The translations under genes and the position numbers were made by a program. 64,000 bases of DNA from a virus. Lineage: Duplodnaviria; Heunggongvirae; Uroviricota; Caudoviricetes. The notes beneath the pieces were generated by a model that was given only the letters and a program-made list of their open reading frames with translations, was not told the DNA's origin and searched no databases. Below, one piece after another: positions 16,401-45,236 of the stretch. The stretch spans positions 19,930 through 83,929 of the IMG/VR virus record IMGVR_UViG_3300042881_003883. One strand, 5' to 3'. Position 1 is the first letter of the stretch. The number at the start of each line of letters is the position of its first letter.

Positions 16401-19204
16401 CTACATATTATATGAACCCCAATAGTAACACTTACTTATATGGTACATTTCAAGTAAATGGTGGACATGGGGATTCTCAAATTGGAGTTAGATTATTGTC
16501 TGGAAACAATGGTGCTGGTGCAGGTGAAATTAATTTAAGAATGTGGGTATCTGAACCTGGTGTAACGTGGAACTGGGGTGGATTTGGATATAACGTAACT
16601 AATAATAATGGTTCACCAAACGGATTTGGTAGAATAAATACCGCACACGGACAGGCATATATGAGATTTAGTGATGGTGGTGATTTGTATTTCTATAATA
16701 CAAATACATCTGGTACTAGAGTTACTAATATGGAAATGTATCCAAATAATACCGTATTATTTAACAACTACGCTACGGGTGGTAACTCATTAAGAGCACC
16801 AATATTTTATGATTCGGATAATACGGGATACTATGGTGATTTTGCATCAACATCTCGTATAAACGCTATTAATTATGATAATTTATATTGGGCGGGAGAT
16901 ACGAGTTATGGTTTCATTGGTAGAAACGTATATGCTGATACTGTAAATGGTAGAGGTAGTGACCCGTTAGAATTAAACTATTATGATGGTGGTGATGTTT
17001 ACATTGGACCTGGTGGTGGTAATAAAAATTTAAGAGCTAATCTTTACTATGATTATGCAAATACTGCATATTATTTAGACCCTAATGGAACTGCTAGATT
17101 ATCATATGTAGTAGCAAATGGTGGTATCCGAATTGATGGAAATGAAAACCTTTACTTAGATAACAACTATGGACAATCAATTGTAGGTGTTTATACATCT
17201 GTTAGATATCAGGGTATATTTGCAATGGGTAATGCATATAAATTAGCAATTGATGGTACTGGTACTGGTAACTTATATGGATTATCTTGGTCACATCCTA
17301 ATGCTGGAGGACAAGCTGGATTCTTAAATGACCACGGTTTATTGGTAATGAACTATGGTACAACTTTTGCGGCAATATCATCACGTGGTTGGTTCAGAAC
17401 TTCAGTTCAGGCACCTATATTCTATGATAATGATGATACTGGATACTATGGTAATTATGCAGGTGATAGAAGCACCAGCGTTAATGGATTTACCGCAAGA
17501 ACAGTAGAAGGAACCAAAGGAACATGGAAATACAATATCCCAAGATTTATTCATACGGGCGACTCTAATTATTGGGTTGGAAGTATGGGTTGGGGTACAA
17601 CTGACTTCAACACTATGATGACATGGGGTAGTGGATTCATTGATTCTTGGTCAAACCCATCAAATCAACCATCTGGTACTTCACATTGGGTAGGTACTCA
17701 AGCATATCACTACACCAATGCATACAATAGTGCATATGGTTGGCAGTTGGTAGGTGGTCCAATTGGAAATTTACGATTCCGTCAATCTTGGCCAAATGCT
17801 GGTACTTGGAGAACTGTACCTATGCTTGATGTGAATGATGGAAATAGTGGAGCAATGTATGCTGGAATTTATTATGATTCGGCTGATAGTGCATATTATG
17901 CAGACCCAGCATCAACATCTCGTTTAAATATAACTAAGACTGCATTAAAAGCTCATAATGATATGAGTGGTTATGGAGAAGGAAACTGGGTTTCAGATTT
18001 CAATCGAACTCCAATAAGTTCATTTACGTTTGGTGAAGATAAATATAATGGTGGTCCATCTGGAACTTGGTGGTTCCAGGTAAATATGAGACATGCAAAC
18101 TCAAGTAACTATTGGGGAACTCAATTGGCATATGGATGGGAAGATAATGCAAATGAAATTTATCAAAGAAATATTACCGGAGGAAGTTTCAGCGGATGGG
18201 TTAGATATCTAAATTCAAACAACTATTCTGGTTATTCAAATTTCGGAACAGGTACAGTTTATGGTGGTATATATTACGATGGTAATAACTCTGGATACTA
18301 TGGTGATTTTGCATCAACATCTCGTTTCAATACAACCATAACTGATACAACATACTTCGGTTCAGATACTAATAAAGGTAGAGCACAGGGATATGGTACT
18401 TGGTCAAATTCATTCCATAAAACGGCATACATGTCATTTGACTGGAACGCGAATTATGACACTTATTCAAATCATGGTATCGCATCTACTGATTTAAATG
18501 GTTCGTTTAGTGATTCGATGAGTATTAACTCATTTAATGATATCAACTTAAGATTAGATTCAAATGATAATAATGCAAACTCATATGTAAGAATACATGA
18601 TAATACTACTGGCCAGTCAGTTTCCGTAGCATATATCGGACGAGAGAGTGGTAACCCTATTGCATATTTCAATAATAGAGTATATGGTAACGTATATTAC
18701 CACAACAGTGATACTGCATATTATTTGGCTCCGAATGGTACTTCCAGATTGAATAGAACAAACTATGATTATGTTTATTCTTATAACTGGGTTTACGCAC
18801 AGGGTGATGTTATTGCATACTACTCTGATGAAAGATTAAAAACTAAAGTTGGTTCTATTGAAAACGCTTTAGATAAAATCTCTAAATTGAATGGATTCTA
18901 TTATGTTGAAAATGATTTAGCAAAATCATTCGGATACAAAAACGAAAAAAGACAATTAGGTTTATCAGCACAAGAAGTACAAGAAGTTTTACCTGAAATT
19001 GTGACATTAGCACCATTTGATACGGAAACTGATAAAAATAATAATATTGTAGGTTCCAAATCTGGAGAAGATTACTTAACTGTAAACTACGCTAAAGTAG
19101 TTCCTCTTTTAGTTGAAGGTATTAAAGAACAAACCGAAATAATCAATTCTCAGCAAAAACAAATTGATGAATTAAAAGAAATGATTAAATCTTTGATAAA
19201 ATAA
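7421..19204 (+). CDS. Giant modular tail fibre (3927 aa) with C-terminal intramolecular chaperone (peptidase S74-like)
   Basis: C-terminal YSDERLKT...ALDKI..LNG..Y...GLSAQEVQEVLPEIV...VNYAKVVPLLVEGIKE plus coiled coil; Gly-X-X tract; about 18 copies of a PIFYD..NT.YY.DP.STS linker. Confidence 0.9.
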   Translation: MKYAGKNPNGINQVSQSLLSVDVNGVQQLTVSTASLDINTKLSVTNGVLASSYTGSAFSGSKFVGSQFSGSFSGSFSGDGSNLTKIPFEGLTADAQSKIQSGDGTARISNNKLSINVNTDITGSLLTTGTVSASFLAGDGSNITNISAASIGDINRLKSGSATATISPNKGLEVNVGIVTEKYLGVSGSAQIAGNLNVDGTTTLKSLNVAGTITATELKTTYISSSIIFSSGSNKFGDQSSDTHEFTGSLRVKDTIQIPSYTSNPVSGKVGEIYYNTSDTNIYRWTGLIWEPAAGTAGTSGTSGTSGTSGTSGTSGTSGTSGSSGSSGASGSSGSSGSSGSSGTSGTSGTSGSGGTSGSGGSSGTSGSSGTRGTSGSSGTSGTSGTSGSSGSSGSSGTSGTSGTSGTSGSSGSSGFGSSGTSGSGGTSGTSGTRGTSGSSGTSGSSGTSGSSGISGSSGTSATSGSGGTSATSGSSGSSGSSGTSGSSGSSGTSGTSGTRGTSGTSGTSGTSGISGSSGSSGSSGTSGTSGISGSSGSSGSSGSSGTSGTSGTRGTSGTSGIDGVVGDGGTSGSSGSSGSSGTSGSSGSSGTSGTSGSSGTNSTAGTGGTSGSSGSSGSSGTSGTSGTSGSSGTSGSSGSSGTSGSSGSSGTSGTSGTSGINGLIGSSGTGGTAGTGGTSGSSGSSGTSGTSGTSGTSGTSGTSGTRGTAGSGGSSGSSGSSGTSGTSGTSGSSGSSGTSGTSGSSGTSGTSGSSGTSGTRGTAGSGGSSGTSGSSGTSGSSGTSGSSGSSGTSGTSGTSGTSGTSGSSGTSGSSGVLALTGTTDNGVITLNGTAPNATVESNLRFDGTTLAVTGNATISGDLTVSGTTTYINTTTLNVGDNIITLNADIGAATAPTENAGIEVKRGNAATKQFYWNESTDRWYADSDLQSAGNLYGTQIDTGQGLTEVHLMNQNVRTSDTITFARLNLTTTGNDYYFAANGLTMTSISTGETIWRNLSSLRFTDNNDWDYNSWAGLKFINASKRIVLGVGGNVFTANSAQTGNLLLDRIDTMYLFDTTYYLNTGTSNLNSLTLAGNLVAAQVNTGQGLTEVHLMNQNVRTTDSVTFANITGNTIYVGGGTTYFINNDISRLNYINANAFAQEQGSVLKITYPNGGTLNNSTSSVTGAIKIRLPQSWTNTMMELKVRIYNYSGDTYWEYSMGGYNYSPSTSWINTNASVAGAAGAPAYTVRFAHDGTYCTIFIGELATTWSYPKIVVTEFIGGHSNFAVSQWDGDWALSFETTSFGTVTSTKTPTLRTGNFIADGTISGTSIDTGQGSTEVHLMNQNIRTTDDVTFSTIRGTNFRASNAYYLGENNFYLNLTNGGWYSNVRIASEVDMRAPIFYDTDNTAYYTNPAGLSVLSHIQLVNNWANTTPNDGAINIRGQYPSMTFRNTISNNMWLRHMDGSGDIQHYFASGVDSTSWSIRHSMFTNGRFFSAESMRTPIFYDSDNTAYYLDAASTSNINEIVSVRGQFRKAQTNNNYTTAALWTESYSTTTTGIAFHISGVVGKYLEMRTDGILYWENEKVWTGSTDGAGSGLDADLLDGQQGTYYDHRIYTSTGNIAGSFLGGHYSSGGTEKPNSATFGAGKLKVAMLSNGNLGFGGSWNDVLWMSTYNGGDVKQSYAIVGDKYGDNLWFSRQAFDSATWGTGRRLWHSGDTTISTTGDMRSPIFYDSDDTTYRIDGNSTSVLNNLNIAGTLTVNGTINLGNDFQIGDYKYFGINNLGASATQARRFEVARIGIDFNDWNSVGLFEVELSENYYDKGLRKRYIVSYGYVSAASVQLVEANGIGSNHFQVTIGSEVVVSGDHRYIPVYVDVRYYSSVDALIRTTRSITTNTNSAIGAVYINTSPSATNISDFTADSIVYPTSGQFGIAAPTFYDSDNTSYYIDPSNGANGISANLQGRIQVGTFNNSQTNTGEAWIGRASDRAAGVLTVQLGGGAGRYLEVVDNAWTTVEFSVNDSGVATAAASFRAPIFYDSNNTSYYLDPTSTTSLRTVGSWRSDSSTWDGEFSGKIQYHSNNWYFQAAGDWIWRNSGGSNVIYGNQSGELTATGNMRSPIFYDSDNTGYYTNPAGTSRMNGIAFDAASPVYSVTAGTSYQQHFQIREAGASGANGSAIAYAPSIGFHWSGVVASNITMEASGRISIRNNPGTSYENLVANNMYAYAFYDENNTGYYLDPASTSVLNAIRLGTSANNSTLSGAGDWGVRFTTDVGYIQIGPANSSYAHIYTDRGNFYMNVNDLYLNGNLVPAFGYNRGSGNLFAAIYYDANNTNYYIDGASTSNLNDLQTAGRVVIGGNFSNNAYNSVGSARLHFGGGNSDANDNYYIGTNIEGYGGSYTKLDLRWHTGIRMGAQPGYGGIRFYDTEDLGTLIFSIGTGDAHVRVTNNLYVNGYTYLGNGNADETHINDTLRVGATDSGDSHFYFGEDSSSWYGDHWYWDSGYNVYRYSRFAGTDSLIHYHDTRDTTRITYARNIVFDDFGKGIVGNYSAERLQLVFAMGDSYKPNTAGTSTANMYGIGWSHPNAGGLGGANNLNDHGLLIINNGTFRAAISSRIVASEEVRGTLFRDYNDSGYYLDPNTTGISLRIGGTVHSGGAFSSDGYSSSSPNVVTRITAPQGAAFSSDGSTGAIRIKLPFRGNNPMWTMKVRIYNYSTNQTSEYLLGNYAYDQGGYNSSATFIGGASATAHTVRFGNQDGVDCVWIGETNTGWSYPVVSVIDFTSGFRSSNADSQSRNWNIAVVTSFGTVQTAITPEIRLSNTYAPTFRADTDMRAPIYYDTNTAYYINGDGASNLNTLQTYSYQGNGNVGGTGNASWHPSGIYSAGYNWLYGGINMNGGTLDGAGPIYGTIYYDRNDSGYYADPASTSNFYNLNLTGAKHTYLTINPGNGWEAMVRYIGGSGSSWYVGKRTSTQLLGSTDAFHMYSETAGRTVGGYDTAGNHYAYGSSRATIFYDIDDTTYYMNPNSNTYLYGTFQVNGGHGDSQIGVRLLSGNNGAGAGEINLRMWVSEPGVTWNWGGFGYNVTNNNGSPNGFGRINTAHGQAYMRFSDGGDLYFYNTNTSGTRVTNMEMYPNNTVLFNNYATGGNSLRAPIFYDSDNTGYYGDFASTSRINAINYDNLYWAGDTSYGFIGRNVYADTVNGRGSDPLELNYYDGGDVYIGPGGGNKNLRANLYYDYANTAYYLDPNGTARLSYVVANGGIRIDGNENLYLDNNYGQSIVGVYTSVRYQGIFAMGNAYKLAIDGTGTGNLYGLSWSHPNAGGQAGFLNDHGLLVMNYGTTFAAISSRGWFRTSVQAPIFYDNDDTGYYGNYAGDRSTSVNGFTARTVEGTKGTWKYNIPRFIHTGDSNYWVGSMGWGTTDFNTMMTWGSGFIDSWSNPSNQPSGTSHWVGTQAYHYTNAYNSAYGWQLVGGPIGNLRFRQSWPNAGTWRTVPMLDVNDGNSGAMYAGIYYDSADSAYYADPASTSRLNITKTALKAHNDMSGYGEGNWVSDFNRTPISSFTFGEDKYNGGPSGTWWFQVNMRHANSSNYWGTQLAYGWEDNANEIYQRNITGGSFSGWVRYLNSNNYSGYSNFGTGTVYGGIYYDGNNSGYYGDFASTSRFNTTITDTTYFGSDTNKGRAQGYGTWSNSFHKTAYMSFDWNANYDTYSNHGIASTDLNGSFSDSMSINSFNDINLRLDSNDNNANSYVRIHDNTTGQSVSVAYIGRESGNPIAYFNNRVYGNVYYHNSDTAYYLAPNGTSRLNRTNYDYVYSYNWVYAQGDVIAYYSDERLKTKVGSIENALDKISKLNGFYYVENDLAKSFGYKNEKRQLGLSAQEVQEVLPEIVTLAPFDTETDKNNNIVGSKSGEDYLTVNYAKVVPLLVEGIKEQTEIINSQQKQIDELKEMIKSLIK
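8303..9868 (+). repeat. Coding Gly-X-X (GTS/GSS) tract of the giant fibre
   Basis: About 520 aa of triplet repeats. Confidence 0.95.
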
Positions 19205-31236: not shown

Positions 31237-32214
31237 GTGAAAATAAGTGTTATAGTTCGTACATACAACCGACCTGATTTATTAAAAGAAGCATTGGCAT
31301 CTGTCCAACTTCAATCTCATACGAATTGGGAGGTTATTATTTTTGATGATTCAGCATCTGATGTTAATTTTAACATTTATAAAGATTTTAAATCACAAAA
31401 TCCTAAAAATGATGTTTTATACCACACATCAAATACTCCATACGATTTATTTAAGAATTCTTGGAAAATTGGAGTAAAACTTGCTAATGGTGAATTGATT
31501 GTACGATTGGATGATGATGATTTATTGGCAGAAGATACATTAGAGTACTTATCAAACACATATACACAACATACTGAGTTAGATTTCTCATATGGTTCAG
31601 CTGTATTCTTTGAGAATACTACATTACAACAAATAAATCAAACTCAAACTCCATTAGAGGCCCCAAAGACAAGAGATTTATGGACAGCATATACAATTCC
31701 TAATAATCACCCTTGGACTCATCCTTGGAGTTGGACAACTAACTATTATGATGAACCAAAGCATTTTACATCTATAATTCATTGTAGTAAAGCAAATATT
31801 ATGTGCATTTATCACACATATGTAATGAGAACCTCATCTTTACTAAAAGTAATCGATAAATTTGATGTAACTTCTAATTTCGTTGATGATTTGGAAGTTA
31901 TGGGTAGTTTAGATTATTTAGGATTAGCACACACTTCAATAAAACGAATTTTGACTTATGCTAGAGTACATAATGAAGGTAGGGTAACTGATACTGGTTT
32001 AAAAGTAAATGGAACTGATTTGTGGAACGATATATTCCATATCAGAGATAAAGTTGACTATTTAAGAACTGAAGGATTTCAATCCAACATATATCTACCT
32101 AAATTAGATGGAAATTTTAATGAAGGTAGTATAACATCAGCACATCAGCACTATTTTTCAAATTATATCTTTAAAATAAAACAAATATCTAATAAATTTG
32201 GTAAATTCAAATAA
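31237..32214 (+). CDS. Glycosyltransferase family 2 (GT-A)
   Basis: ISVIVRTYNRPDLLKEALASVQLQSHTNWEVIIFDD; RLDDDD (DxD motif); GTG start. Confidence 0.85.
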   Translation: MKISVIVRTYNRPDLLKEALASVQLQSHTNWEVIIFDDSASDVNFNIYKDFKSQNPKNDVLYHTSNTPYDLFKNSWKIGVKLANGELIVRLDDDDLLAEDTLEYLSNTYTQHTELDFSYGSAVFFENTTLQQINQTQTPLEAPKTRDLWTAYTIPNNHPWTHPWSWTTNYYDEPKHFTSIIHCSKANIMCIYHTYVMRTSSLLKVIDKFDVTSNFVDDLEVMGSLDYLGLAHTSIKRILTYARVHNEGRVTDTGLKVNGTDLWNDIFHIRDKVDYLRTEGFQSNIYLPKLDGNFNEGSITSAHQHYFSNYIFKIKQISNKFGKFK

Positions 32215-36036: not shown

Positions 36037-36432
36037 ATGTTTATACCAAATCATTTACATTTACTTGTAAAGGGAAGCATTAAAACTCCACCTCAAACGG
36101 AAAAAATACTAAACGTTTGGTTTAGTGAATTAGTTAATAAAGTAGGAATGAAAGTAGTTGCCGGTCCTACATCGGTTTATGTTAACGAACCGGGCAACGA
36201 AGGAATAACGGGAACAGTAACATTAGCAACATCGCATGCTAGTATTCACGTTTGGGATAATGATAATCCACCAATGTTCCAATTTGATTTATATAGTTGT
36301 TCAGATTTTACTGCAACTCAAGTATTAAATCATATAGATGAATGGTTTGGGTTGATAGAAGCTCACTACCAAATGATAGATAGAAATGGAAATGACTTTA
36401 AAATTATAGATTCCGGTCATTTTAAAAAATAA
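36037..36432 (+). CDS. speD: Pyruvoyl-dependent S-adenosylmethionine decarboxylase homologue
   Basis: LATSHASIHVW...FDLYSCSDF matches the AdoMetDC (E)SH.SIH.W...D.Y.C pattern. Confidence 0.75.
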   Translation: MFIPNHLHLLVKGSIKTPPQTEKILNVWFSELVNKVGMKVVAGPTSVYVNEPGNEGITGTVTLATSHASIHVWDNDNPPMFQFDLYSCSDFTATQVLNHIDEWFGLIEAHYQMIDRNGNDFKIIDSGHFKK

Positions 36433-36454: not shown

Positions 36455-37276
36455 ATGTTAGTTAAAAAAGGTGATAATAACGAAAATGTAAAAAAATTAC
36501 AAGCAAAATTAGGTTTAACCGCTGATGGAGTTTTTGGTGCTGGTACTGAATCAGCTGTAAAAGCTTGGCAAACAAAAAATGGATTAACTGCTGATGGTAT
36601 CGTTGGTGATGCTACTTGGGAAAAGATGGGATTGGGTGCAAGTACTCCAACTCCTTCTGTTGCTGTACCAGCATCTTCATTTAAATTGGCAGCTCTTAAA
36701 GGACACGTTCCTGATTCTGTAATTGCTCAAATTCCAGACACTGCTTCTAAATTCAATATTACAACTCCTCTAAGATTAGCTCATTTCTTAGCACAATGTG
36801 GACACGAAAGTGGTGGATTCAAAGCCGTTACTGAGAATGTTAACTATTCAGCAGATGGATTAGTAAAAATCTTCGGAAAATACTTTAATTCAACAACTGC
36901 AGCTGCATATGCTAGAAACCCTGAAAAGATTGCATCTAAAGTTTACGCATCAAGAATGGGTAATGGTGATGAAGCATCTAAAGACGGATTTAAATTTCGT
37001 GGACGTGGTTATATTCAATTAACTGGTAAATCTAACTATACTAACTTCGCTAAATTCATTGGTGAAGATACTGTTGCAAATCCTGATTTGGTAGCAACTA
37101 AATATCCATTAGCTTCTGCTGCATTTTTCTTTGATTCAAATAAACTTTGGTCTATTTGTGATAAAGGTTTTGATGATGCTACTGTAACATCGGTAACTAA
37201 AAGAGTAAATGGTGGTACTATTGGATTAGCTGATAGAATCAAACACTTCAAAGAATACTATAACTTATTAAAGTAA
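36455..37276 (+). CDS. Endolysin: PG-binding domain plus glycoside hydrolase family 19
   Basis: LQAKLGL.ADGVFG.GTE.AVK.WQ..NGL.ADGIVG; LAHFLAQCGHESGGF; FRGRGYIQLTGKSNY; TKRVNGG.IGL.DR. Confidence 0.9.
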   Translation: MLVKKGDNNENVKKLQAKLGLTADGVFGAGTESAVKAWQTKNGLTADGIVGDATWEKMGLGASTPTPSVAVPASSFKLAALKGHVPDSVIAQIPDTASKFNITTPLRLAHFLAQCGHESGGFKAVTENVNYSADGLVKIFGKYFNSTTAAAYARNPEKIASKVYASRMGNGDEASKDGFKFRGRGYIQLTGKSNYTNFAKFIGEDTVANPDLVATKYPLASAAFFFDSNKLWSICDKGFDDATVTSVTKRVNGGTIGLADRIKHFKEYYNLLK

Positions 37277-37289
37277 TATGGGGGTTGGT

Positions 37290-37745
37290 TTATTTAACTA
37301 AACCATAATATTCTATATTCTTAAGTGCGTTGTTAACCAACCAAGGTTCTACATTAGGTATTTTTGATAGGAATTCCAATTCATAATGATATGCTAATAT
37401 TTCCTCATAATTCGGAGGTAATTTTATGTTATGCTTTAAATAAAATAAATGTTTAGATTCATGCACTAATATAGCTGCTATGTTATTTATTGAATTAAAC
37501 CTCATATCTTTTTGGGATATCATTATGGTAACTGAATCTTCTGTTGTTGAAAAATCACCATCCCAATAGGTGATATGTTTACATACATCATTAATTAATT
37601 CATATTTATTAGGGTCAACTTGTTTTATTAGTGATAATGAAGTAGCTACCTTTGCTTTCCAATTATCACCAACATCATCGATTTTAATTTGTGAGTAACA
37701 ATCAAACACAAATAAAAAATTAATTAAAAGTAGAATCAGTTTCAT
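37290..37745 (-). CDS. Exported protein with HExxH (possible zinc metalloprotease)
   Basis: Signal peptide MKLILLLINFLFVFDCYS|Q; AAILVHESKH...EE; the only supported minus-strand gene. Confidence 0.6.
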   Translation of the reverse strand: MKLILLLINFLFVFDCYSQIKIDDVGDNWKAKVATSLSLIKQVDPNKYELINDVCKHITYWDGDFSTTEDSVTIMISQKDMRFNSINNIAAILVHESKHLFYLKHNIKLPPNYEEILAYHYELEFLSKIPNVEPWLVNNALKNIEYYGLVK

Positions 37746-37794: not shown

Positions 37795-37803
37795 ATATTT
37801 ATA
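37795..37803 (+). promoter_or_regulatory. Putative late promoter motif ATATTTATA
   Basis: 20 nt upstream of the cohesin gene ATG. Confidence 0.55.
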
Positions 37804-37823: not shown

Positions 37824-39728
37824 ATGAAAAAACTATTATTTTTACTGCTGGTATCATTAGTACCAATCTTTGGGTATTCACAAACTTGCCCAACGCCAAC
37901 AACTTCTGGTGTTTTTATAACACTTGATTCAAATTATTTAGCTGGTACGGTAGCTGAAGGTTATACTAATGTAGGACTATGTTTTTACAACAATACAACA
38001 ACTGATATAACAGCATTTCAGTTTAGAGTTTATTATGATACACAAGCTTTCACTGGGGTAGACACACTTACTACATTGAATACAACATTTTCTCAGAACC
38101 TAAAATATGTTGATAATCCGGCTGCTGGTTATGTAACTGTCACAATGACTTATACTGGTAGTTCATCTACTTTTGAAATTCCAAATGGACCAATTGTTCA
38201 GTTGAAATTAACTCACGTAGCTGGATTTGCATCATTATCAACTATTGCTGATATGTCATTTGGAGCGGTAACTTATCCAGCAATTGCATCAAAGCAAAAT
38301 GGTATGGATAACGCACTTACATTACAAAACTTTGGTGGTAATATTATACCTCAAACAATGTCTTATCATGGTAAATTTAAGAACGTAACTGGAACAGCTG
38401 CTAAGAATTTAACTGTAGCTTTAGAAAAGAAACTTAGACCAAGTGGAGCTTGGACTCAGGTTACAACTGATATGACTGATATAAATGGTGACTTTGCATT
38501 TAATGCAATTGCAATTGATACAACTGGTTATGATGTTAGATTAAAAATACAGGGAGATACGTTATCAGTTGGTAATGTAATATCTACGGCAGATGCACAA
38601 AGAGTACAAGATTATGTATTAGGTACACAAGCACCAACTGGATTTGATTTTTACGCATCGGATGTTAATGGTGATAATGGTTTAAGTATATCGGATGCAT
38701 ATGGTATATTTGGTAGAATTTCTGGTAGATTCACCGCATGGCCTAATAGTGTTCAAAATGTAAAATTCTTTACACAATCTGAATATACTACTATTAATGG
38801 CTCAACAACCAATTATACATCAACAATTCCTGGTGTAACTAACTTTACGTTTAATATTGTTGCTGGACAACCTGATTCGGTTACATTCTATGTATTAGTA
38901 CCGGGTGATGCAAATGGAACGGGATATCGTATGGCACGTATTACTCCAATTGAGGTTTTAGTAGGACCACAACCTGGCGTTCCATCTCAAATTTACAATG
39001 TAATTGATGCTAGGGTAGAATATGATTTTCCAACAACTTCAATTGAAGTAAATGTTCCAACATTATCAGTTCAGGAAGGTAATTTAGTTAATATACCTGT
39101 AAAGGTATTAACAAATGGTACTGAGGTTGGTTCATTACAATTTGGATTAAAATACAACGATACTCTATTGGAATTTAAAGGAATTGAATCGAAATCAGCT
39201 ACTTCAAGTTGGTTAACATATTTGAATACTAATAATAATGAAATTTCTTGGGGTGGATATGATATTAGTGGTACACATATAAAACCATTAAGAGATGGTG
39301 ATGATGTTGTAACTTTAAAATTTATTGCAAAAAGACCTCAAGACCAATGGAGTACAAGTCCTCTTTGGACTACTAACAAATACGCTGGTAACAATCAATG
39401 TGTTGATTTAAGTATCACACCTACAAATGGTATTATACAGGTATTTAGAATGGCAAATGTTACTATTGATGAAATAGAGGGTATGCAAATATTCCCTAAC
39501 CCAACTGATGATTATGTTAACGTAAAATTTGAAGTTAAAGAATTTGGACCGGTTAGGTTATCAGTATATGGTCTTAATGGTATTGAATATAGGGTAGTAG
39601 TAAATGATAATATGCCTGAAGGTAATTACCAATACCAAGTTAGTTTAGGTAACTTAATTCCAGGTGTTTATGTTGCAGTTCTTAGAAAAACTACCAATAA
39701 CCTATCGAAAAAAATTATATTAAGATAA
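37824..39728 (+). CDS. Exported scaffold: cohesin, beta-sandwich, dockerin-like, cohesin, T9SS type-A C-terminal domain
   Basis: Signal peptide ...FGYS|Q; ITAFQFRVYYD and VNIPV...GSLQFGLKYN (cohesin-like); DVNGDNGLSISDA (dockerin-like); IFPNPTDDYVNV...SVYGLNG...L.PGVYV...SKKII (T9SS CTD). Confidence 0.75.
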   Translation: MKKLLFLLLVSLVPIFGYSQTCPTPTTSGVFITLDSNYLAGTVAEGYTNVGLCFYNNTTTDITAFQFRVYYDTQAFTGVDTLTTLNTTFSQNLKYVDNPAAGYVTVTMTYTGSSSTFEIPNGPIVQLKLTHVAGFASLSTIADMSFGAVTYPAIASKQNGMDNALTLQNFGGNIIPQTMSYHGKFKNVTGTAAKNLTVALEKKLRPSGAWTQVTTDMTDINGDFAFNAIAIDTTGYDVRLKIQGDTLSVGNVISTADAQRVQDYVLGTQAPTGFDFYASDVNGDNGLSISDAYGIFGRISGRFTAWPNSVQNVKFFTQSEYTTINGSTTNYTSTIPGVTNFTFNIVAGQPDSVTFYVLVPGDANGTGYRMARITPIEVLVGPQPGVPSQIYNVIDARVEYDFPTTSIEVNVPTLSVQEGNLVNIPVKVLTNGTEVGSLQFGLKYNDTLLEFKGIESKSATSSWLTYLNTNNNEISWGGYDISGTHIKPLRDGDDVVTLKFIAKRPQDQWSTSPLWTTNKYAGNNQCVDLSITPTNGIIQVFRMANVTIDEIEGMQIFPNPTDDYVNVKFEVKEFGPVRLSVYGLNGIEYRVVVNDNMPEGNYQYQVSLGNLIPGVYVAVLRKTTNNLSKKIILR

Positions 39729-39802
39729 TAATATGAGGTTACAAATGTGACCTCATAATTGTTATAATCAACTCAAAACAAATTAAACAAAAAAACAATA
39801 CT

Positions 39803-40126
39803 ATGTCAGAAGAAACAAACGCACCCGAATCAGAAGGAACTTGGTCAGGTTTAAAGAAAACAATTATTGGAACTCTATCAACTGCTGTATTAGCAGGTGG
39901 AACTTGGGTTACAACAACTCTATTTAATGGTGGAGATGATAAAGAAGAAACTAAAACAGAACAAGCTGCTCCAGCTGCACCTGTAATTATCAATCTACAA
40001 AATAATAACACTAATCAACAAAAACAATCGGGTGGTACAAATACAATTATTAAAGAAAAAACAATTGTAGAAAAACCTGCACCAGCTGCAGCACCTGCTA
40101 AACCAAAAGAAGAGGATTCTTGGTAA
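39803..40126 (+). CDS. Single-pass membrane protein with low-complexity tail
   Basis: One hydrophobic stretch (IIGTLSTAVLAGGTWV) followed by an N/Q- and A/P/K-rich tail. Confidence 0.6.
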   Translation: MSEETNAPESEGTWSGLKKTIIGTLSTAVLAGGTWVTTTLFNGGDDKEETKTEQAAPAAPVIINLQNNNTNQQKQSGGTNTIIKEKTIVEKPAPAAAPAKPKEEDSW

Positions 40127-40127
40127 T

Positions 40128-40847
40128 ATGAAAAAATTAATATTAATAATTTCTTCAATTTTATTATTTTCTATTGTTAGTAATGCACAAACAATTGGAA
40201 CTATTAAAACCGAAGAATATAAAGCTGATTTTGAAAAAAAACAATCTATTGCAGTTGTAGGTGACTATGATGGTGATATCGTTTTACCAATTCAAGTTTT
40301 AAAAATTGGTATTAACGAAGAACTTTACGAAATGTATCCTGAGTTAAAGGATAAGAGAGTTGGGCTTGGTGTTGCTAATATTGTTTTAGAATTCTTAGAG
40401 TCAACAGATAGATTTAAGTTTACTGAGGACCGTGAGGAGATTAAACAAAAAATGATTGCACAGGATAAGGCATCTGATAAGGGTATATCAAGTAATAAGA
40501 TAGAAGTGAAGGGTAATGTTATTTTAGCAAAATACTTCGTTTATATTGAGGTATATGACTTTTCAGTATCCGAAGATGAACAAATCAAAATGACTGATGG
40601 TTCAAAAACAACTCAAACAACTCGTTTGGGTTTACAGGTTAGATTCGTTGATGCTGAAACTGGTGAAATTATTACCGGTAGTGGTTTGGGTGAAGCAAGT
40701 ACAGTTAAAACTGCATCATTATTAGATGGTGTTGATGACATTAAATTTAACCAATCAACTATTGGTATATCAACTAAGAAAGCTCTTGAAACTGGAGCAT
40801 CTAGAGTTGTTTCAAAAATGATTAAAAAGGGAATATTTAAAAGTTAA
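40128..40847 (+). CDS. CsgG/HfaB-like exported protein
   Basis: Signal peptide ...SNA|Q; F.F.EDREEI, AKYFVYIEVYDFS, LGLQVRFVDAETGEII.GSG.GEA. Confidence 0.7.
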   Translation: MKKLILIISSILLFSIVSNAQTIGTIKTEEYKADFEKKQSIAVVGDYDGDIVLPIQVLKIGINEELYEMYPELKDKRVGLGVANIVLEFLESTDRFKFTEDREEIKQKMIAQDKASDKGISSNKIEVKGNVILAKYFVYIEVYDFSVSEDEQIKMTDGSKTTQTTRLGLQVRFVDAETGEIITGSGLGEASTVKTASLLDGVDDIKFNQSTIGISTKKALETGASRVVSKMIKKGIFKS

Positions 40848-40852
40848 ATATA

Positions 40853-41215
40853 ATGGGCAAAATAAGTGAATTTTTCGGTGGTAAATCTGATTATGTTAAA
40901 GTAGATGATAAAAATCGTTTCTATTTTATGTTGCAACAAATGCAAAATAATCGTTGGAGAATTACCGCAATTATATTAGGGTTATTTACCTTAATTATTG
41001 TTGGAATCAACTCTGGTGTATTTTTTGGTGTAGAAATTGGACAAGACTGGAAAGAAATGTTATTAATTTTATTAGGTGCCTTTGTTGGTAACTTAAATAA
41101 AGTTATAGATTATTGGTTCAACTCTGAAGATAGAGACAAAATGTTAATCCAAAAGGTAGATGAAGAGGATGGCGTATCTTTATCTAATACATTGGATTCG
41201 CAAGATGAAAATTAA
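40853..41215 (+). CDS. Two-TM membrane protein (holin-like possible)
   Basis: Two hydrophobic helices; LLILLGAFVGNLNKVIDYWFNS; acidic C-terminal tail. Confidence 0.5.
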   Translation: MGKISEFFGGKSDYVKVDDKNRFYFMLQQMQNNRWRITAIILGLFTLIIVGINSGVFFGVEIGQDWKEMLLILLGAFVGNLNKVIDYWFNSEDRDKMLIQKVDEEDGVSLSNTLDSQDEN

Positions 41216-42422
41216 AAAACTTTTAATAACAATAAGTTTTTTGTTCTCTACTATGGTGGTGTTAGGACAAGGGTTCTCATATACATTTACAGACCCATGT
41301 ACCTTAAAATCCAAAGATATTTTTATTAATAGCCCAAATGGTAGCGTATCATTAATATATTCTGGGCAAATTCAAAGTTTTACTCAAACACAATTACAAT
41401 CCGGTGCATTAGAAAGTTGGATTAATCAAGTTAATGCGAGTAATCCGCAAGGTTCCGGCCCTTGTGGTGGTGTTGGTATAGCACAAAGTACCAATTTAAA
41501 TGTAACGGTTGCAGCTAATAATATAGCAGTGTTAACAAGCGTTATGTCAACCATGTCATCACTTTCATCTATAAGTGGAGCAGCTGGTTCAGCAATACAA
41601 GGTACAGTTCAGAGTAATGAAAAAGTCGCATCTAACGGCAATAAATCAGATGATAAAAATGGTACATCTGGTAGTTCATCGCAATCAACTAAATCAAAAG
41701 GAGAATCGGAAGAAAAAACAGGTGAAGAAAAAGCTGAAGAGGCTGTATCATCTTCATCATCTAATTCATCTCAGGTTAAAGCTAAAGTAGCAGCTGTTAA
41801 ACGTGGTAATATTATGATGACTGGTGATATTGTTACTATATCAAGTGCTTCTGGTAATGAACCACAACAACTTAAAATTAATATGAGTTTTATCACATCA
41901 AATACTGAGAATACATTTGCTAAAGGGGCTTTGGTAAATTATACTACTGCAATTGATAATTCTTGTATAACACTATTTGCAGCTTGGAGACGTAAAAACT
42001 TAACATCAATAGTTGCAAATTCATCTATGTTGAATTTTGAAAAGGATTATTTTAATACAACATCGATAATGGAATCGTATAAAATAAAAAAAATAACAGC
42101 AACGTTGGGAGTAAATTATACTACTGGTAATATTGGTGAATCCAAATTCCAAAGTTTATCAACTTTAGGCGGAGTTGTTGGTAATTTCGATGTAGGAAAA
42201 AAAATGAGTACTACATTGATGTTTGTTACAGTATATTCACCATTTGTATATTATTATGAAGGCATGTGGTATCAATCGGGACTATTAGCAGTTCCATTTG
42301 TTGCAATTGATTACAAGCTAACTCAGAAATTTAAAATGAACATCAGTTTTAGTGGTGTTCAACAATTTAAGAGTGATGCTATAAACTACCAAGTATTACT
42401 TGGTGCTAAAGCACTTTTATAA
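41205..42422 (+). CDS. Exported protein with Ser/Lys-rich linker and putative C-terminal beta-barrel
   Basis: Likely start MKIKKLL at 41205; signal peptide ...VVLG|Q; alternating aromatic/hydrophobic strands (VPFVAIDYKL..KFKMNISF...YQVLLGAKALL). Confidence 0.55.
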   Translation: MKIKKLLITISFLFSTMVVLGQGFSYTFTDPCTLKSKDIFINSPNGSVSLIYSGQIQSFTQTQLQSGALESWINQVNASNPQGSGPCGGVGIAQSTNLNVTVAANNIAVLTSVMSTMSSLSSISGAAGSAIQGTVQSNEKVASNGNKSDDKNGTSGSSSQSTKSKGESEEKTGEEKAEEAVSSSSSNSSQVKAKVAAVKRGNIMMTGDIVTISSASGNEPQQLKINMSFITSNTENTFAKGALVNYTTAIDNSCITLFAAWRRKNLTSIVANSSMLNFEKDYFNTTSIMESYKIKKITATLGVNYTTGNIGESKFQSLSTLGGVVGNFDVGKKMSTTLMFVTVYSPFVYYYEGMWYQSGLLAVPFVAIDYKLTQKFKMNISFSGVQQFKSDAINYQVLLGAKALL

Positions 42423-42423
42423 A

Positions 42424-42873
42424 ATGAAAAAATTATTATTACTATCTTTGATGTTAATCACATCATTAACTTATGGACAAAAATGCTACACTGTTAAAAA
42501 TGTAGAGAGTCTTGCTAAAATTGAAAATATAAATCCTAAAAGATTTACATTAGGTGTTAAACAAATAACTGAAGAAATTCTATCTGAAAAATATAGTATA
42601 TGTGAAGATGGTGAATCAGTAATGGTTGTTGTTAAGAGTATTGAGGCACCTACAACAAGTATTTCAATTGGACCATTTGAAAAGAAAAGAAAAGTTACTA
42701 TTGTGACTGTTGATTTAATTATTAATGGTAAAGTATATACTGGAATTGGTGAAAGTAAGACTGATGTAAAATCTACATTTATTGAATTGCAAGATGAAAA
42801 TATTCCATTTGAAAAATCAGCGTTTTCAGCTGCATTAAAAAAATCATTAATAAGTGCTATTAACCAAATGTAA
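42424..42873 (+). CDS. Exported hypothetical protein (possibly CsgG-like fold)
   Basis: Likely start MKKLLLL at 42424; signal peptide ...TYG|Q; G.KQI.EEIL, Y.GIGES, FEKSAFS.ALKKSL echo the 40128 protein. Confidence 0.5.
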   Translation: MKKLLLLSLMLITSLTYGQKCYTVKNVESLAKIENINPKRFTLGVKQITEEILSEKYSICEDGESVMVVVKSIEAPTTSISIGPFEKKRKVTIVTVDLIINGKVYTGIGESKTDVKSTFIELQDENIPFEKSAFSAALKKSLISAINQM

Positions 42874-42874
42874 T

Positions 42875-44548
42875 ATGAGAAGATATCTCACCCTGTTATT
42901 ATTAATAATATCCAATATTGTATTTGCTCAAACATTTACATATTCGGGTTATATGTATAATGCGGGTGGATTACCAGCTCAAAATGTTGCTGTAAAATTA
43001 TATAAACGTACTACACCAACTCTTACTGGGTTTACATCACAAACCAATTATAACGGACACTCTTACTATCGTTCTACTGGTTCAATGACTTGGACTAATG
43101 CAAAGGTTGCTTGTGAAAATATGGGAGGTCACTTAGCTACCGTATCTAATTCAGCTGAGAACAATTTCTTATTTAATACATGGCCATCTGGTTGGATTGG
43201 ATATTATCAAGATAGAGTTTCTGGATATACTTATTCGGAAGCAGCTGGTGGATTTCGTTGGACAGAAACTAAAGTAACTGATGGATTGGTTGCTGATTAT
43301 GATGTTTCTTCTTATACATCAGGAACCACACTAACTGATATTGTATCTGGTATTAATTCTACATTATACAATACACCATCATACTCAAGTACTGGTGGGA
43401 AATATTTAACATTCAATGGAACTAATCAATACGCAATAACAAATAATTTAGCATCCAAATTTTCGAATAATAAAATAACTATAATGGCTTGGATATATCC
43501 AACCGGAAATGGAGTTATATCATCGGAATTAGGTGTTGGTAGTCCTACATCAGGTTGGCATGAATCAATAATGGAAATCACTGGAAGTAATACCCTTAGA
43601 GTTGGATTTTGGAATGGTAGTGGAATTACTCAATTAAGTACATCTATTACATTAAACGCTTGGCATTTGGTTTCTATTACTTATGATGGGGCATCAATGA
43701 AAGGATATTTAAATAATGTAAATTTTGGAAGTACTAATTTTACTAGAGATGTTCCGTATGTGTATTCGGGAAACGGACAATATTTCGCATTTGGATTAAG
43801 TGATGTTACTAATATGGGTTCTGGAGCTTATGGTAATTTTAGATTAGGTGATTATCAAATATTCAATAGAGCTATAACAGCCGATGAAATTGATAGAACA
43901 TATAACTTATATGCATATCGATATAAATTAAATCAATACACAAATTGGAATTCCGGAGAACCTAATAACTCACCCAGTGAAGATTATACACAATTTGTTA
44001 CAGGTGGTAAATGGAATGATTTAGGAAATACATCTTTACCTTATGTTATAGAATTTGATTATATTAACGATTTTACTCCATGGGTTTTACATCAAACAGT
44101 TTATACTAACTCTTCTGGATATTATTCATTTTCTCAATCAACCAATCCAGCAACCGAATGGTATATTCAATATGATATTCCAACACCTACAACACAACTA
44201 AGTACCAGTGATATTAATTCTATAATGTACAAAGTTATTAGTAATTCATTTAATGGATTAGATTATTATAAGTACGATGTAAATAATGATGGTGAAGTAA
44301 CTGTATCTGATGTTTATTATATTCATATGAAAAAAGTTGGGATGAAATCTATATGGGAAAATTCTTTACCAAATGTTAGATTATTTACCCAATCACAATA
44401 TAATATAATAAATTCATCAACTACTGATTTACGCCCTACCTATATAGGAACATCCTCAATTATAATAAATAATCCAACAAGTGGTGGAAGTTCAAATTAC
44501 TACTTAATTAATACCGGTTATTCTAATAGTACAACAATTTCGTACTAA
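42875..44548 (+). CDS. Exported lectin: C-type lectin with inserted LamG domain plus dockerin-like domain
   Basis: Likely start MRRYLTLL; signal peptide ...VFA|Q; TWTNAKVACENMGGHLATV...WIG; YLTFNGTNQY, ITIMAWIYP, WHLVSITYDG (LamG); YTNWNSGEPNN...WND; DVNNDGEVTVSDV. Confidence 0.8.
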   Translation: MRRYLTLLLLIISNIVFAQTFTYSGYMYNAGGLPAQNVAVKLYKRTTPTLTGFTSQTNYNGHSYYRSTGSMTWTNAKVACENMGGHLATVSNSAENNFLFNTWPSGWIGYYQDRVSGYTYSEAAGGFRWTETKVTDGLVADYDVSSYTSGTTLTDIVSGINSTLYNTPSYSSTGGKYLTFNGTNQYAITNNLASKFSNNKITIMAWIYPTGNGVISSELGVGSPTSGWHESIMEITGSNTLRVGFWNGSGITQLSTSITLNAWHLVSITYDGASMKGYLNNVNFGSTNFTRDVPYVYSGNGQYFAFGLSDVTNMGSGAYGNFRLGDYQIFNRAITADEIDRTYNLYAYRYKLNQYTNWNSGEPNNSPSEDYTQFVTGGKWNDLGNTSLPYVIEFDYINDFTPWVLHQTVYTNSSGYYSFSQSTNPATEWYIQYDIPTPTTQLSTSDINSIMYKVISNSFNGLDYYKYDVNNDGEVTVSDVYYIHMKKVGMKSIWENSLPNVRLFTQSQYNIINSSTTDLRPTYIGTSSIIINNPTSGGSSNYYLINTGYSNSTTISY

Positions 44549-44552
44549 TGTT

Positions 44553-44561
44553 ATATTTATA
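44553..44561 (+). promoter_or_regulatory. Putative late promoter motif ATATTTATA
   Basis: 19 nt upstream of the ATG at 44581. Confidence 0.55.
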
Positions 44562-44580: not shown

Positions 44581-45180
44581 ATGGCAAAGTACACAAAAGA
44601 ACAAATTGAAAAAGCAGTTAAATCAAAAGGATACGTTTGGTTTGAAGATGCTTCTAACAAAGGATTTGATTTAAACATCGTAGGTATCAGAAATTCATCA
44701 ACCGGTACAAAGGTTACTAACGTATTTGATGATGCAATTTCAGTATCATATAAAGATGGTGGTAATTGGATTTACAAAGAATGGGTAAACACAACCGACC
44801 CTGGTACAAAGGGAGTTAAAGAATATCATAATGCAGCTGGAGTTGCTCGTTTAGTTCCGGGTCAATATAGAGGTTCACATACATTGGGATTACATCAAGG
44901 TAAATACGAAGCACTTAAACAACAAAAGCCGGTTAAGGTTTATAGAGATGCTAATAGAGATATGAACTATGATGAAACCAAAATCCAAGAAGGTATCTTT
45001 GGTATCAACATCCACAAAGCTGGAGCAGATTCAACTTATGTTGAAAATTGGTCTGAAGGATGTCAAGTATTCAAAAAAGCAGCTGATTTTGAAGAATTTA
45101 TGGTTATTACGAGAAAATCAGGTGCAATACATGGTAAATCGTTTACATATACATTAATAGAATCGAAAGATATTGTTTAA
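44581..45180 (+). CDS. Putative L,D-transpeptidase (YkuD)-like cell-wall enzyme
   Basis: GINIHKAG...NWSEGCQV resembles the H...S.GC catalytic motif; TTDPG, LVPGQY. Confidence 0.55.
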   Translation: MAKYTKEQIEKAVKSKGYVWFEDASNKGFDLNIVGIRNSSTGTKVTNVFDDAISVSYKDGGNWIYKEWVNTTDPGTKGVKEYHNAAGVARLVPGQYRGSHTLGLHQGKYEALKQQKPVKVYRDANRDMNYDETKIQEGIFGINIHKAGADSTYVENWSEGCQVFKKAADFEEFMVITRKSGAIHGKSFTYTLIESKDIV

Positions 45181-45204: not shown

Positions 45205-45236
45205 AAAGGGAAAGCGAAAGTTTTCCCTTTTTTATT
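45205..45236 (+). terminator. Intrinsic terminator ending the late block
   Basis: AAAGGGAAA-GCGAAAGT-TTTCCCTTT followed by a T-run. Confidence 0.75.

Follow-up and report, generated by a model that had tools for sequence, protein, structure and literature searches.

A phage cassette with cohesin-like, dockerin-like, lectin and CsgG-fold proteins that may remodel the envelope of infected Bacteroidota cells

A cassette of seven genes, here named g1 to g7, was identified at positions 37824-44548 of the window, a 64,000-nucleotide stretch corresponding to bases 19930-83929 of the 147.9 kb IMG/VR virus record IMGVR_UViG_3300042881_003883, which is 84% complete. The seven open reading frames (ORFs) are contiguous, closely spaced and all on the + strand, in agreement with the layout given in a preliminary description of this DNA. 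Judging from its sequence, the cassette may be an operon used at the time of infection to remodel the envelope of the host cell, on which lectins would be displayed in the manner of a cellulosome by way of the host Sec pathway and the host type IX secretion system (T9SS). We regard this as the best explanation and rate it somewhat short of an even chance. The genes are as follows.

37824-39728, +, g1, scaffold of 634 aa (Pfam and NCBIfam matches)
39803-40126, +, g2, single-pass protein of 107 aa (alignment of 17 homologues, hydropathy)
40128-40847, +, g3, predicted exported CsgG-fold protein of 239 aa (profile and model)
40853-41215, +, g4, holin-like protein of 120 aa with two predicted transmembrane segments (hydropathy)
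41205-42422, +, g5, predicted outer-membrane barrel of 405 aa (AF2 model, Foldseek)
42424-42873, +, g6, small predicted exported protein of 149 aa (weak profile matches)
42875-44548, +, g7, lectin of 557 aa with a dockerin-like module (Pfam, module shared with g1)

The scaffold g1 is composed, from its N terminus, of a signal peptide, a cohesin-like domain (residues 21-178), a module of beta-sandwich, dockerin-like and FTQSEY segments (about 180-345), a cohesin (407-540) and a C-terminal domain (CTD) of the T9SS type (556-632). Residues 407-540 matched the full profile (1-139) of Pfam Cohesin (PF00963) at 43.2 bits (cut-off 24.1), and the same family was above cut-off in a marine relative (L084). 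The N-terminal domain gave no Pfam match itself; nine of its 19 homologues matched Pfam Cohesin (best E 3.3e-5), and its profile reached the ScaC cohesin 5LXV in PDB weakly (E 0.09). The likeness between the N- and C-terminal domains was also weak (BLASTP E 0.36, hhalign E 0.026). Of the two cohesin-like domains claimed earlier for g1, the C-terminal one thus stands above cut-off by itself and the N-terminal one is supported through its homologues alone. The T9SS tag claimed for the scaffold was confirmed above the curated cut-offs of two families, Por_Secre_tail (PF18962; residues 556-632, 38.1 bits, cut-off 27) and TIGR04183 (26.6 bits, cut-off 23); it spans residues 556-633 of 634 and is the only copy in the 148 kb record (genome scan, E 6e-11). 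Scanned as a whole, the record has exactly two modules of the cohesin-like kind, two of the dockerin-like kind and a single CTD, all of them within g1 and g7.

Signal peptides of the n-h-c type, as read from sequence, are present at the N termini of g1, g3, g5, g6, g7 and rev151, an oppositely oriented gene ahead of g1 that is described below. In each case the predicted cleavage site is followed by Gln, and signal peptides with Gln at +1 were retained in the checked homologues of g1, g3, g6, g7 and rev151. A signal peptide ending before Gln is the pattern of signal peptidase I in Bacteroidota. The predicted g1 signal peptide is MKKLLFLLLVSLVPIFGYS, followed by QT, and an equivalent was found in 18 homologues. 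These predicted signals direct each of the eight products out of the cytoplasm, six via signal peptides and two (g2 and g4) as inner-membrane proteins. The five Sec signal peptides counted earlier among the seven genes are thus predicted here as well (g1, g3, g5, g6 and g7), and together with the T9SS tag they support the proposed targeting of the products to the envelope.

The beta-sandwich of g1, its dockerin-like helix/Ca loop/helix and its FTQSEY segment recur together in g7 (BLASTP E 4e-15), where the last reads FTQSQY. Both modules lie under the Pfam cut-off of 22.9 bits for Dockerin_1 (PF00404): g1 scored 19.3 bits at residues 252-292 by hmmscan and 16.9 in the genome scan, and g7 scored 14.9 in the genome scan. 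Among 31 homologous modules, 12 matched Dockerin_1 at E <= 0.01 (best 1.6e-5), and the match of the module profile to PDB dockerins was weak (E 0.08-0.14). Alignment identified one canonical Ca loop per module, DVNGDNGLSISD in g1 and DVNNDGEVTVSD in g7; the first dockerin repeat is reduced to a helix with an invariant Asp, and two tandem Ca loop-helix repeats were not found in the module. On this reading of the sequences the modules fall short of genuine type I dockerins; with only one canonical Ca loop, they are best called "dockerin-like". The earlier assignment of dockerin-like domains to g1 and g7 is therefore upheld by the homologues that match Dockerin_1, and it is qualified by the scores below cut-off and the single loop in this genome.

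In g7 the signal peptide is followed by a beta-sandwich holding a C-type lectin, into which LamG is inserted, and then by the dockerin-like and FTQSQY module; it carries no CTD. Pfam matches were Laminin_G_3 (E 4e-15) and Lectin_C (E 2.9e-9), the latter (PF00059) covering the N-terminal half of the domain at 38 bits (cut-off 22.6). A homologue that lacks the LamG insertion (L007) matched the full Lectin_C domain at 60.9 bits. The EPN...WND sugar/Ca site, at residues 362-382 of g7, is intact here and in 15 of the 15 lectin-bearing homologues checked. The description of g7 as a lectin with a dockerin-like domain but no sorting domain is thus borne out by Lectin_C and by the module common to g1. 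In a comparison of genomes with 86% identity, LamG stands out as a clean indel of roughly 750 bp. The heads found on the protein with the dockerin-like module included Lectin_C, Lectin_C with LamG, Lectin_C with Ig_7, PA14 and GEVED, and a head may be inserted or replaced between otherwise collinear genomes (82-86% identical). From these sequence comparisons the head region appears to behave like a host-recognition island.

The pairing of these modules was approached by structure prediction, proposed as a check in the preliminary description, and by comparison of gene architecture. A predicted complex of the N-terminal cohesin-like domain, the C-terminal cohesin, the g7 dockerin-like module and Ca scored 0.52 against 0.54 for a control with chain 1 replaced, which gives no answer and speaks neither for nor against binding. 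In phages of the type of Flavobacterium phage vB_FspM_immuto (hereafter immuto), an adaptor (cohesin-like and dockerin-like, 363 aa) and an anchor (signal peptide, cohesin and CTD, 243 aa) are separate exported proteins, and in the present genome the two are fused into the single protein g1. One complete jumbo relative has Lectin_C and Cohesin within a single protein. A survey of 300 further genomes from the family of G001, a metagenome-assembled genome (MAG) of a Flavobacteriaceae bacterium, turned up no copy of the dockerin-like module. The mini-cellulosome proposed earlier is plausible and gains indirectly from the fission of the scaffold, the fusion of lectin and cohesin, and the swapping of heads; binding between the modules is putative.

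Direct searches of g3 against Pfam, NCBIfam and PDB sequences gave no match, and PHROG gave nothing informative. An exhaustive search collected 252 g3 relatives. There are 6485 homologous protein clusters for g3; 17 of 34 distant homologues matched Pfam CsgG (PF03783; best E 1.9e-17), and the g3 profile found E. coli CsgG (3X2R) at E 1.7e-5. The AF2 model of g3 (pLDDT 83) matched CsgG at Z 12.6-13.8 (VIA Z 13.8, about 3.5 above the next family; Foldseek E 1.4e-7), followed by CT253, FlgT and LptE (Z about 10), PelC (9-9.6) and TraT (7.3). As a fold, the CsgG-like protein named in the preliminary description is therefore well founded.

A pore of its own is a different matter. No lipobox Cys is present in g3 of this genome, in which the signal peptide ends ...FSIVSNA before QT, and several close and distant relatives carry ...FSCK or ...GC. 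Compared with CsgG, the protein is short by about 40 residues. A single long hairpin (136-175) is modelled, the tip of which (146-165, SVSEDEQIKMTDGSKTTQTT) is predicted to be polar here and in the aligned homologues, and the place of the second CsgG membrane hairpin is taken in the model by a 14-residue loop. As modelled, g3 is probably not a CsgG-type pore, because it is without a lipid anchor and hydrophobic membrane hairpins, and the suggestion that the phage brings its own CsgG pore was not sustained. Genes of the curli family (csgE, csgF, csgA and csgB) were not detected among the neighbouring genes by Pfam, NCBIfam and PHROGs. The most conserved motif of the g3 family, YPEL.DKRVGLG, aligns with the constriction loop of CsgG (YPASNF), the constriction residues Asn and Phe being read from the alignment as Lys and Asp in g3; this alignment suggests that g3 may form a ring with a functional centre. 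By analogy, g3 and the separate barrel gene adjoining it recall PelC with PelB.

The barrel gene, g5, encodes 405 aa from the ATG at 41205, and the 398-aa stretch 41226-42422 was used for analysis. It is predicted to consist of a signal peptide, an N-domain with two invariant Cys, a disordered S/E/K-rich linker that varies greatly in length, a short helix and a barrel of 12 strands. In the AF2 model the barrel (residues 195-398) has pLDDT 70-87, the overall value being 61. Foldseek matched NanC/KdgM (TM by target 0.63-0.65), FapF and autotransporter barrels; matches in AFDB were porins and autotransporters, and the Atlas features were KdgM, Tsx and OmpG. The order in the model is N-domain, linker, helix (182-192) and 12 long strands (195-396); a type Va autotransporter, in which an N-terminal passenger and a pore-filling helix precede a C-terminal 12-stranded barrel, is a candidate. 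Porins matched as well as autotransporter barrels or better, and there was no match to Pfam Autotransporter. None of 24 homologues gave a Pfam match, and DUF3187, a lead taken from the neighbour of a distant g3 homologue, was dropped on the same scan. The putative beta-barrel reported earlier is accordingly kept as a prediction for the C-terminal part of g5.

The second small exported protein listed in the preliminary description corresponds to g6, judged by its predicted signal peptide. A weak relationship links it to the C-terminal half of g3 (hhalign E 0.0047; hmmsearch of the ORFs of the genome, E 0.0028), and the Atlas gave weak leads to Lipoprotein_16 and to LptE/CsgG clusters. Direct searches of g5 and g6 in Pfam, NCBIfam, PHROG and PDB sequences returned nothing informative. 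The single-pass protein is g2, with an acidic cytoplasmic N terminus, a weakly hydrophobic Gly/Thr-rich membrane segment at about 20-41 by hydropathy, and, in the periplasm, a low-complexity P/A/K/E tail with a conserved E-[DE]-[SP]-W at its end (alignment of 17 homologues); its matches were weak (phrog_2658 "hol-like", E 0.0027; FliL, E 0.03). The protein with two transmembrane segments is g4 (hydropathy segments 34-63 and 67-86, charged C terminus), for which Pfam, PHROG and NCBIfam gave no informative family match. It is present in only part of the clade, and its position varies, either between g3 and g5 or ahead of g3.

The cassette is flanked by two wall enzymes, as stated in the preliminary description, and further elements lie next to g1.

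36455-37276, +, GH19 endolysin, PG_binding_1 with GH19-type muramidase, upstream flank (Pfam and PHROG matches)
37290-37745, -, rev151, predicted exported HExxH protein of 151 aa (signal peptide and HESKH read from sequence)
37795-37803, +, ATATTTATA promoter-like motif, 21 nt ahead of the g1 ATG
39732-39757, +, hairpin with an 11-bp stem and a weak T tail, right after the g1 stop (consensus terminator scan)
44581-45180, +, g8, second wall-enzyme-like protein of 199 aa, downstream flank (PHROG matches)

The upstream endolysin matched PG_binding_1 (E 2e-14), Glyco_hydro_19 (E 2.2e-9) and the endolysin family phrog_181 (E 1.1e-70), and g8 matched phrog_3000 (E 1.5e-36) and the endolysin family phrog_33083 (E 3.9e-12); no Pfam or PDB sequence match was found for g8. 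By eye, HKAGADSTYVENWSEGCQVF in g8 resembles the YkuD-type catalytic motif His...Ser-x-Gly-Cys (H...SxGC), and g8 would look like an L,D-peptidase if this reading holds. Just upstream of the GH19 endolysin, a 131-aa ORF (36037-36432, +) holds LATSHASIHVWDN, which by eye resembles the self-cleavage region of SpeH-type S-adenosylmethionine decarboxylase proenzymes.

The promoter-like motif claimed to precede the cassette is in its place ahead of g1. The window has 13 copies of ATATTTATA, where 4.45 would be expected. Twelve of them are on the + strand, and most precede an ORF start by 20-110 nt. No copy lies within g1-g7, and the following one, at 44553, is ahead of g8. From g2 to g7 the intergenic spacing is -11 to +5 nt. 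The hairpin after g1, a pattern match, is a possible attenuator, and a better terminator-like hairpin is located after g8 at 45205-45230. As read from the sequence, this layout fits one or two transcription units.

A homologue of rev151 was syntenic with the cassette in most loci, often on the same strand and overlapping the end of g6. Judged by this synteny, rev151 is the eighth member of the cassette, apparently inverted in the present lineage. Its Atlas model resembles Zn_peptidase, DUF2201_N and M48 clusters (TM 0.53-0.71), so that it may be a minimal metallopeptidase-like protein.

The distribution of the cassette was followed through g3, which was found in at least 184 IMG/VR contigs, 80 loci of which were inspected. 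The order g1, g2, g3, (g4), g5, g6/g7, together with the HExxH gene and nearby endolysins, was observed in nearly all of them, and marine contigs in which g3 identity falls to 35-41% retain the cohesin-CTD protein and the g2-g3-g5-g6 core. Synteny in IMG/VR loci, immuto and marine contigs hence agrees with the expectation that relatives keep the genes together. The region had no Megablast match in 50,697 GenBank phage records, and the only cultured phages with the cassette in the GenBank phage set were Immutovirus phages of Flavobacterium sp. LMO8. In bacteria it was detected on four MAG contigs among 185,579 species genomes, and a g3-like protein was found in one of 200 sampled genomes of the family of MAG G001. 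The cassette is essentially phage-specific, being almost absent from the bacterial genomes searched, and the possibility of a prophage or host gene set was rejected on this ground. The single non-phage match of the g3 profile in the 200 sampled genomes, L099 (G061:C21:1-2823), is a CsgG/LpoB-like lipoprotein of 311 aa, with three small lipoproteins after it; the group was taken as a bacterial lipoprotein cluster and has no synteny with the phage cassette. PADLOC gave no defence-system match for the eight proteins.

The position of the cassette in the genome is not fixed. In relatives with DnaB 70-89% identical, the GH19 and g8 genes adjoin with no cassette between them, and in both of the 100%-complete relatives tested (252 and 287 kb) the g3, lectin and barrel genes were located elsewhere in the genome. 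The module is therefore clade-wide but moving and exchanged. Relative to immuto, g3 is 76% and DnaB 41% identical, and relative to another relative, G303, the values are 57% and 82%; this pattern indicates module exchange and not slow evolution. The proposal that g3 evolves more slowly than replication genes (76% against 36-59% for SSB, DnaB and RNR, in comparison with immuto) was rejected, DnaB-close relatives (70-82%) having g3 only 57-58% identical. In the complete 287 kb relative (L183, G304:C1:69500-88500), a GT2 glycosyltransferase and a calcineurin-like phosphoesterase lie between the g3 and g5 homologues (9735-11246), and lectin and cohesin are fused in one 764-aa protein.

If the cassette remodels the envelope, the following order of events can be proposed. 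The scaffold g1 would cross the outer membrane by the host T9SS and remain on or near the cell surface, and g7 would plug into one of its cohesins; in immuto-type phages the chain would run from lectin through adaptor to the cohesin-CTD anchor. The infected cell, or its debris, would become coated with a lectin head that is swapped per phage lineage to suit host glycans. The core would consist of g2 as inner-membrane tether, g3 as a periplasmic ring of CsgG fold, g5 as a barrel with a tethered N-domain, and g6. This g2-g3-g5-g6 core may form an outer-membrane-associated complex that anchors the assembly or assists it, closer to PelC with PelB than to a CsgG channel. As to the pay-off, we speculate that glycan receptors would be masked, which would spare progeny from being lost on debris and block superinfection, or that infected cells would stick to neighbouring hosts. 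The passage from export to surface assembly and to receptor masking or neighbour capture is inferred throughout. The fuller proposal, in which a self-contained virus-encoded cohesin-dockerin assembly is used with the host T9SS to mount interchangeable lectin heads on the dying cell or its debris, with the CsgG-fold ring and the barrel as base and receptor masking or host capture as the outcome, is tentative, and we consider it possible rather than probable.

Several points weigh against envelope remodelling by lectin display. The dockerin-like modules are below the Pfam cut-off in this genome and have a single canonical DxNxDxxxxxxD loop, the model gives g7 no route across the outer membrane, the role given to g2, g3, g5 and g6 is a guess, and the overall confidence of the g5 model is low. 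Furthermore, the block always travels with lysis genes, the only membrane proteins near the endolysins (g2 and g4) are inside it, and a lysis function fits the core at least as well.

According to such a lysis function, the core (g2, g3, g5 and g6, with g4 as holin) would be the outer-membrane and timing part of lysis, a spanin substitute that destabilises the outer membrane after the wall enzymes have cut the peptidoglycan, with lectin and scaffold as add-ons. Despite rearrangements, most relatives have the cassette either between the GH19 endolysin and g8 or next to them, these two enzymes adjoin directly in the DnaB-close relatives, and g2, g3, g5 and g6 are the most deeply conserved set. 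With g3 being a lipoprotein in many relatives, the succession of g2 and g3 matches in topology a pair made up of an inner- and an outer-membrane protein. A crude regex scan of the whole 147.9 kb record, 84% complete, found no credible lipobox ORF that might be an o-spanin, in line with the earlier remark that no spanin is evident, although a spanin may lie in the missing part. The candidates at hand do not look like a two-component spanin either: the periplasmic tail of g2 is of low complexity and not a coiled coil, and g3 is a 220-residue globular CsgG-fold protein and not a short proline-rich o-spanin. Apart from the match of g2 to phrog_2658, no sequence likeness to known spanins, holins or disruptins was found. 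The endolysin of immuto is about 6 kb from the cassette, and lysis leaves the T9SS-tagged scaffold and the swappable lectin heads unaccounted for. On balance we hold this explanation to be less likely than lectin display, and it is the main rival. Lectin display and lysis are compatible and not mutually exclusive.

The likeness of g3 to PelC, the ring that feeds the PelB barrel and the next fold to be considered after CsgG, leads to the alternative that a CsgG/PelC-like ring and a barrel form an outer-membrane exporter of a phage-made glycan, which the displayed lectins would bind to build a coat or matrix. A separate barrel gene follows g3 in all lineages seen, and one jumbo relative has a GT2 glycosyltransferase inside its cassette. 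PelC, however, matches g3 clearly less well (Z 9-9.6) than CsgG does (Z 13.8), the cassette includes no Wzx/Wzy, ABC or synthase gene, and a 12-stranded barrel is small for the passage of a polymer; glycan export is accordingly improbable.

Equally improbable is that the genes are independent exported accessory proteins (morons), co-located and non-assembling, with the cohesin- and dockerin-like folds serving as generic beta-sandwich and EF-hand spacers. To our knowledge, non-cellulosomal cohesin- and dockerin-like modules are common in bacteria and their pairing has not been shown. The dockerin-like modules here score under the Pfam cut-off, and the cassette is mobile and mosaic, as the opposite trends of g3 and DnaB identity against immuto (76% and 41%) and G303 (57% and 82%) illustrate. 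A set of unrelated morons would nevertheless not be expected to retain order and membership in contigs of both freshwater and marine origin, with g3 identity as low as 35-41%, with genes that overlap or are separated by 1 nt, with fission and fusion events that connect adaptor, anchor and lectin, and with a connector module that occurs, among the genomes searched, only in these phages. That g1 and g7 are virion parts (decoration or fibre) with signal-peptide-like N termini unused for export is hardly credible, even if variable lectin heads mounted on a constant module are what one would expect of receptor-binding proteins and the region of the heads is like a host-recognition island, since canonical signal peptides with Gln at +1 are present in all homologues checked, a T9SS sorting domain would have no role in a cytoplasmically assembled virion, PHROG gave no structural match, and the cassette sits with lysis and replication genes and not in the tail module.

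Among known systems, cellulosome scaffolds such as ScaB of Acetivibrio cellulolyticus (PDB 4UYP) resemble the proposed surface assembly in having a cohesin above cut-off, a second cohesin-like domain, a dockerin-like module on cargo and adaptor, and a surface-anchoring end, and immuto-type phages share with cellulosomes the three tiers of anchor, adaptor and cargo. Unlike cellulosomes, the cassette is encoded by a virus, its cargo is a lectin and not an enzyme, and its anchor is a T9SS CTD and not an SLH or sortase signal. Unlike cellulosomal dockerins, its module has one canonical Ca loop, scores below cut-off, is fused to the beta-sandwich and FTQSEY segment, and has a putative binding partner.

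The closest named relative is the locus gp013-gp019 of immuto (NC_055915, Immutovirus; host Flavobacterium sp. LMO8), which represents the same cassette, with g3 76% identical, and contains the lectin, adaptor, cohesin-CTD anchor, g2, g3, g5 and g6. It differs in that the lectin gene comes first and has no LamG, the scaffold is divided into two genes, and the endolysin is about 6 kb off; no homologue of g4 or rev151 was detected at the locus. The GenBank names in immuto are only "cohesin domain-containing" and "lectin C-type domain-containing" proteins, and no functional study of the immuto cassette was found in the literature.

With respect to structure, g3 has the protomer fold of E. coli CsgG (PDB 4UV3, 3X2R) at Z 12.6-13.8 over 178-194 residues, and shares with PelC of the PelBC exporter (PDB 5T10, 9H80; Z 9-9.6) a separate adjoining barrel gene, as PelB with PelC. 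It is unlike CsgG in being about 40 residues shorter, in lacking a lipobox Cys here, and in its polar hairpin tip (146-165) and the absence of a counterpart of the second hairpin.

Phage genes with type-A T9SS sorting domains have been described in Cryophage and were proposed to hijack host secretion (Bellas et al. 2020, PMC7468147). The T9SS cargo of Cryophage varies between phage variants and includes a PA14-domain protein; the words "cohesin" and "lectin" have 0 occurrences each in that paper (PMC7468147). Zaragoza-Solas et al. (2020, PMC7029224) reported a conserved csgG/csgF "curli" cluster of unknown function in pelagimyophages and proposed that it serves "sibling capture" through aggregation. 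That cluster likewise combines a CsgG-family protein with unknown neighbours and lies between replication and structural modules (PMC7029224). The pelagimyophage CsgG and CsgF are recognisable and near alphaproteobacterial ones, whereas g3 is too divergent for a direct Pfam match; in the present cassette CsgF, CsgE and CsgA were not detected, T9SS, cohesin and lectin parts come in addition, and the hosts belong to a different phylum. No description of the cassette as a whole was found in the literature, as had been stated in the preliminary description. Parts of it have been published, and the precedents cover only these pieces, the T9SS cargo (PMC7468147) and the csgG/csgF cluster (PMC7029224), beside the domain names in the GenBank record of immuto.

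Under the fuller proposal, no earlier functional cohesin-dockerin system of a virus would precede this one, and a large clade of Bacteroidota phages would carry a new class of phage "exit strategy" genes. If lectin display is correct, aquatic Flavobacteriia phages of a very common group would remake the infected cell's surface using their own plug-and-socket lectin kit. The group comprises at least 184 viral contigs and about 6,500 g3 protein clusters and includes jumbo genomes of 250-430 kb. Such a system would bear on how progeny escape loss on debris in dilute waters, on superinfection and aggregation of bloom-degrading bacteria, and on outer-membrane passage by Bacteroidota phages, for which no spanins are known here, and it would offer a natural compact cohesin-dockerin and T9SS display system. 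The cultured pair of phage immuto and Flavobacterium sp. LMO8 makes the question directly testable.

Two other regions of the window are of minor note. An ORF at 31237-32214 (+) matched a GtrB-like glycosyltransferase family (phrog_22739, E 4e-7), and the phage may alter surface glycans. Two giant ORFs on the + strand, at 1-5346 (more than 1781 aa, 5' end open) and 7421-19204 (3927 aa), contain patches of G+C 0.43-0.46 against about 0.32 elsewhere and may encode fibre or adhesin-like virion proteins.

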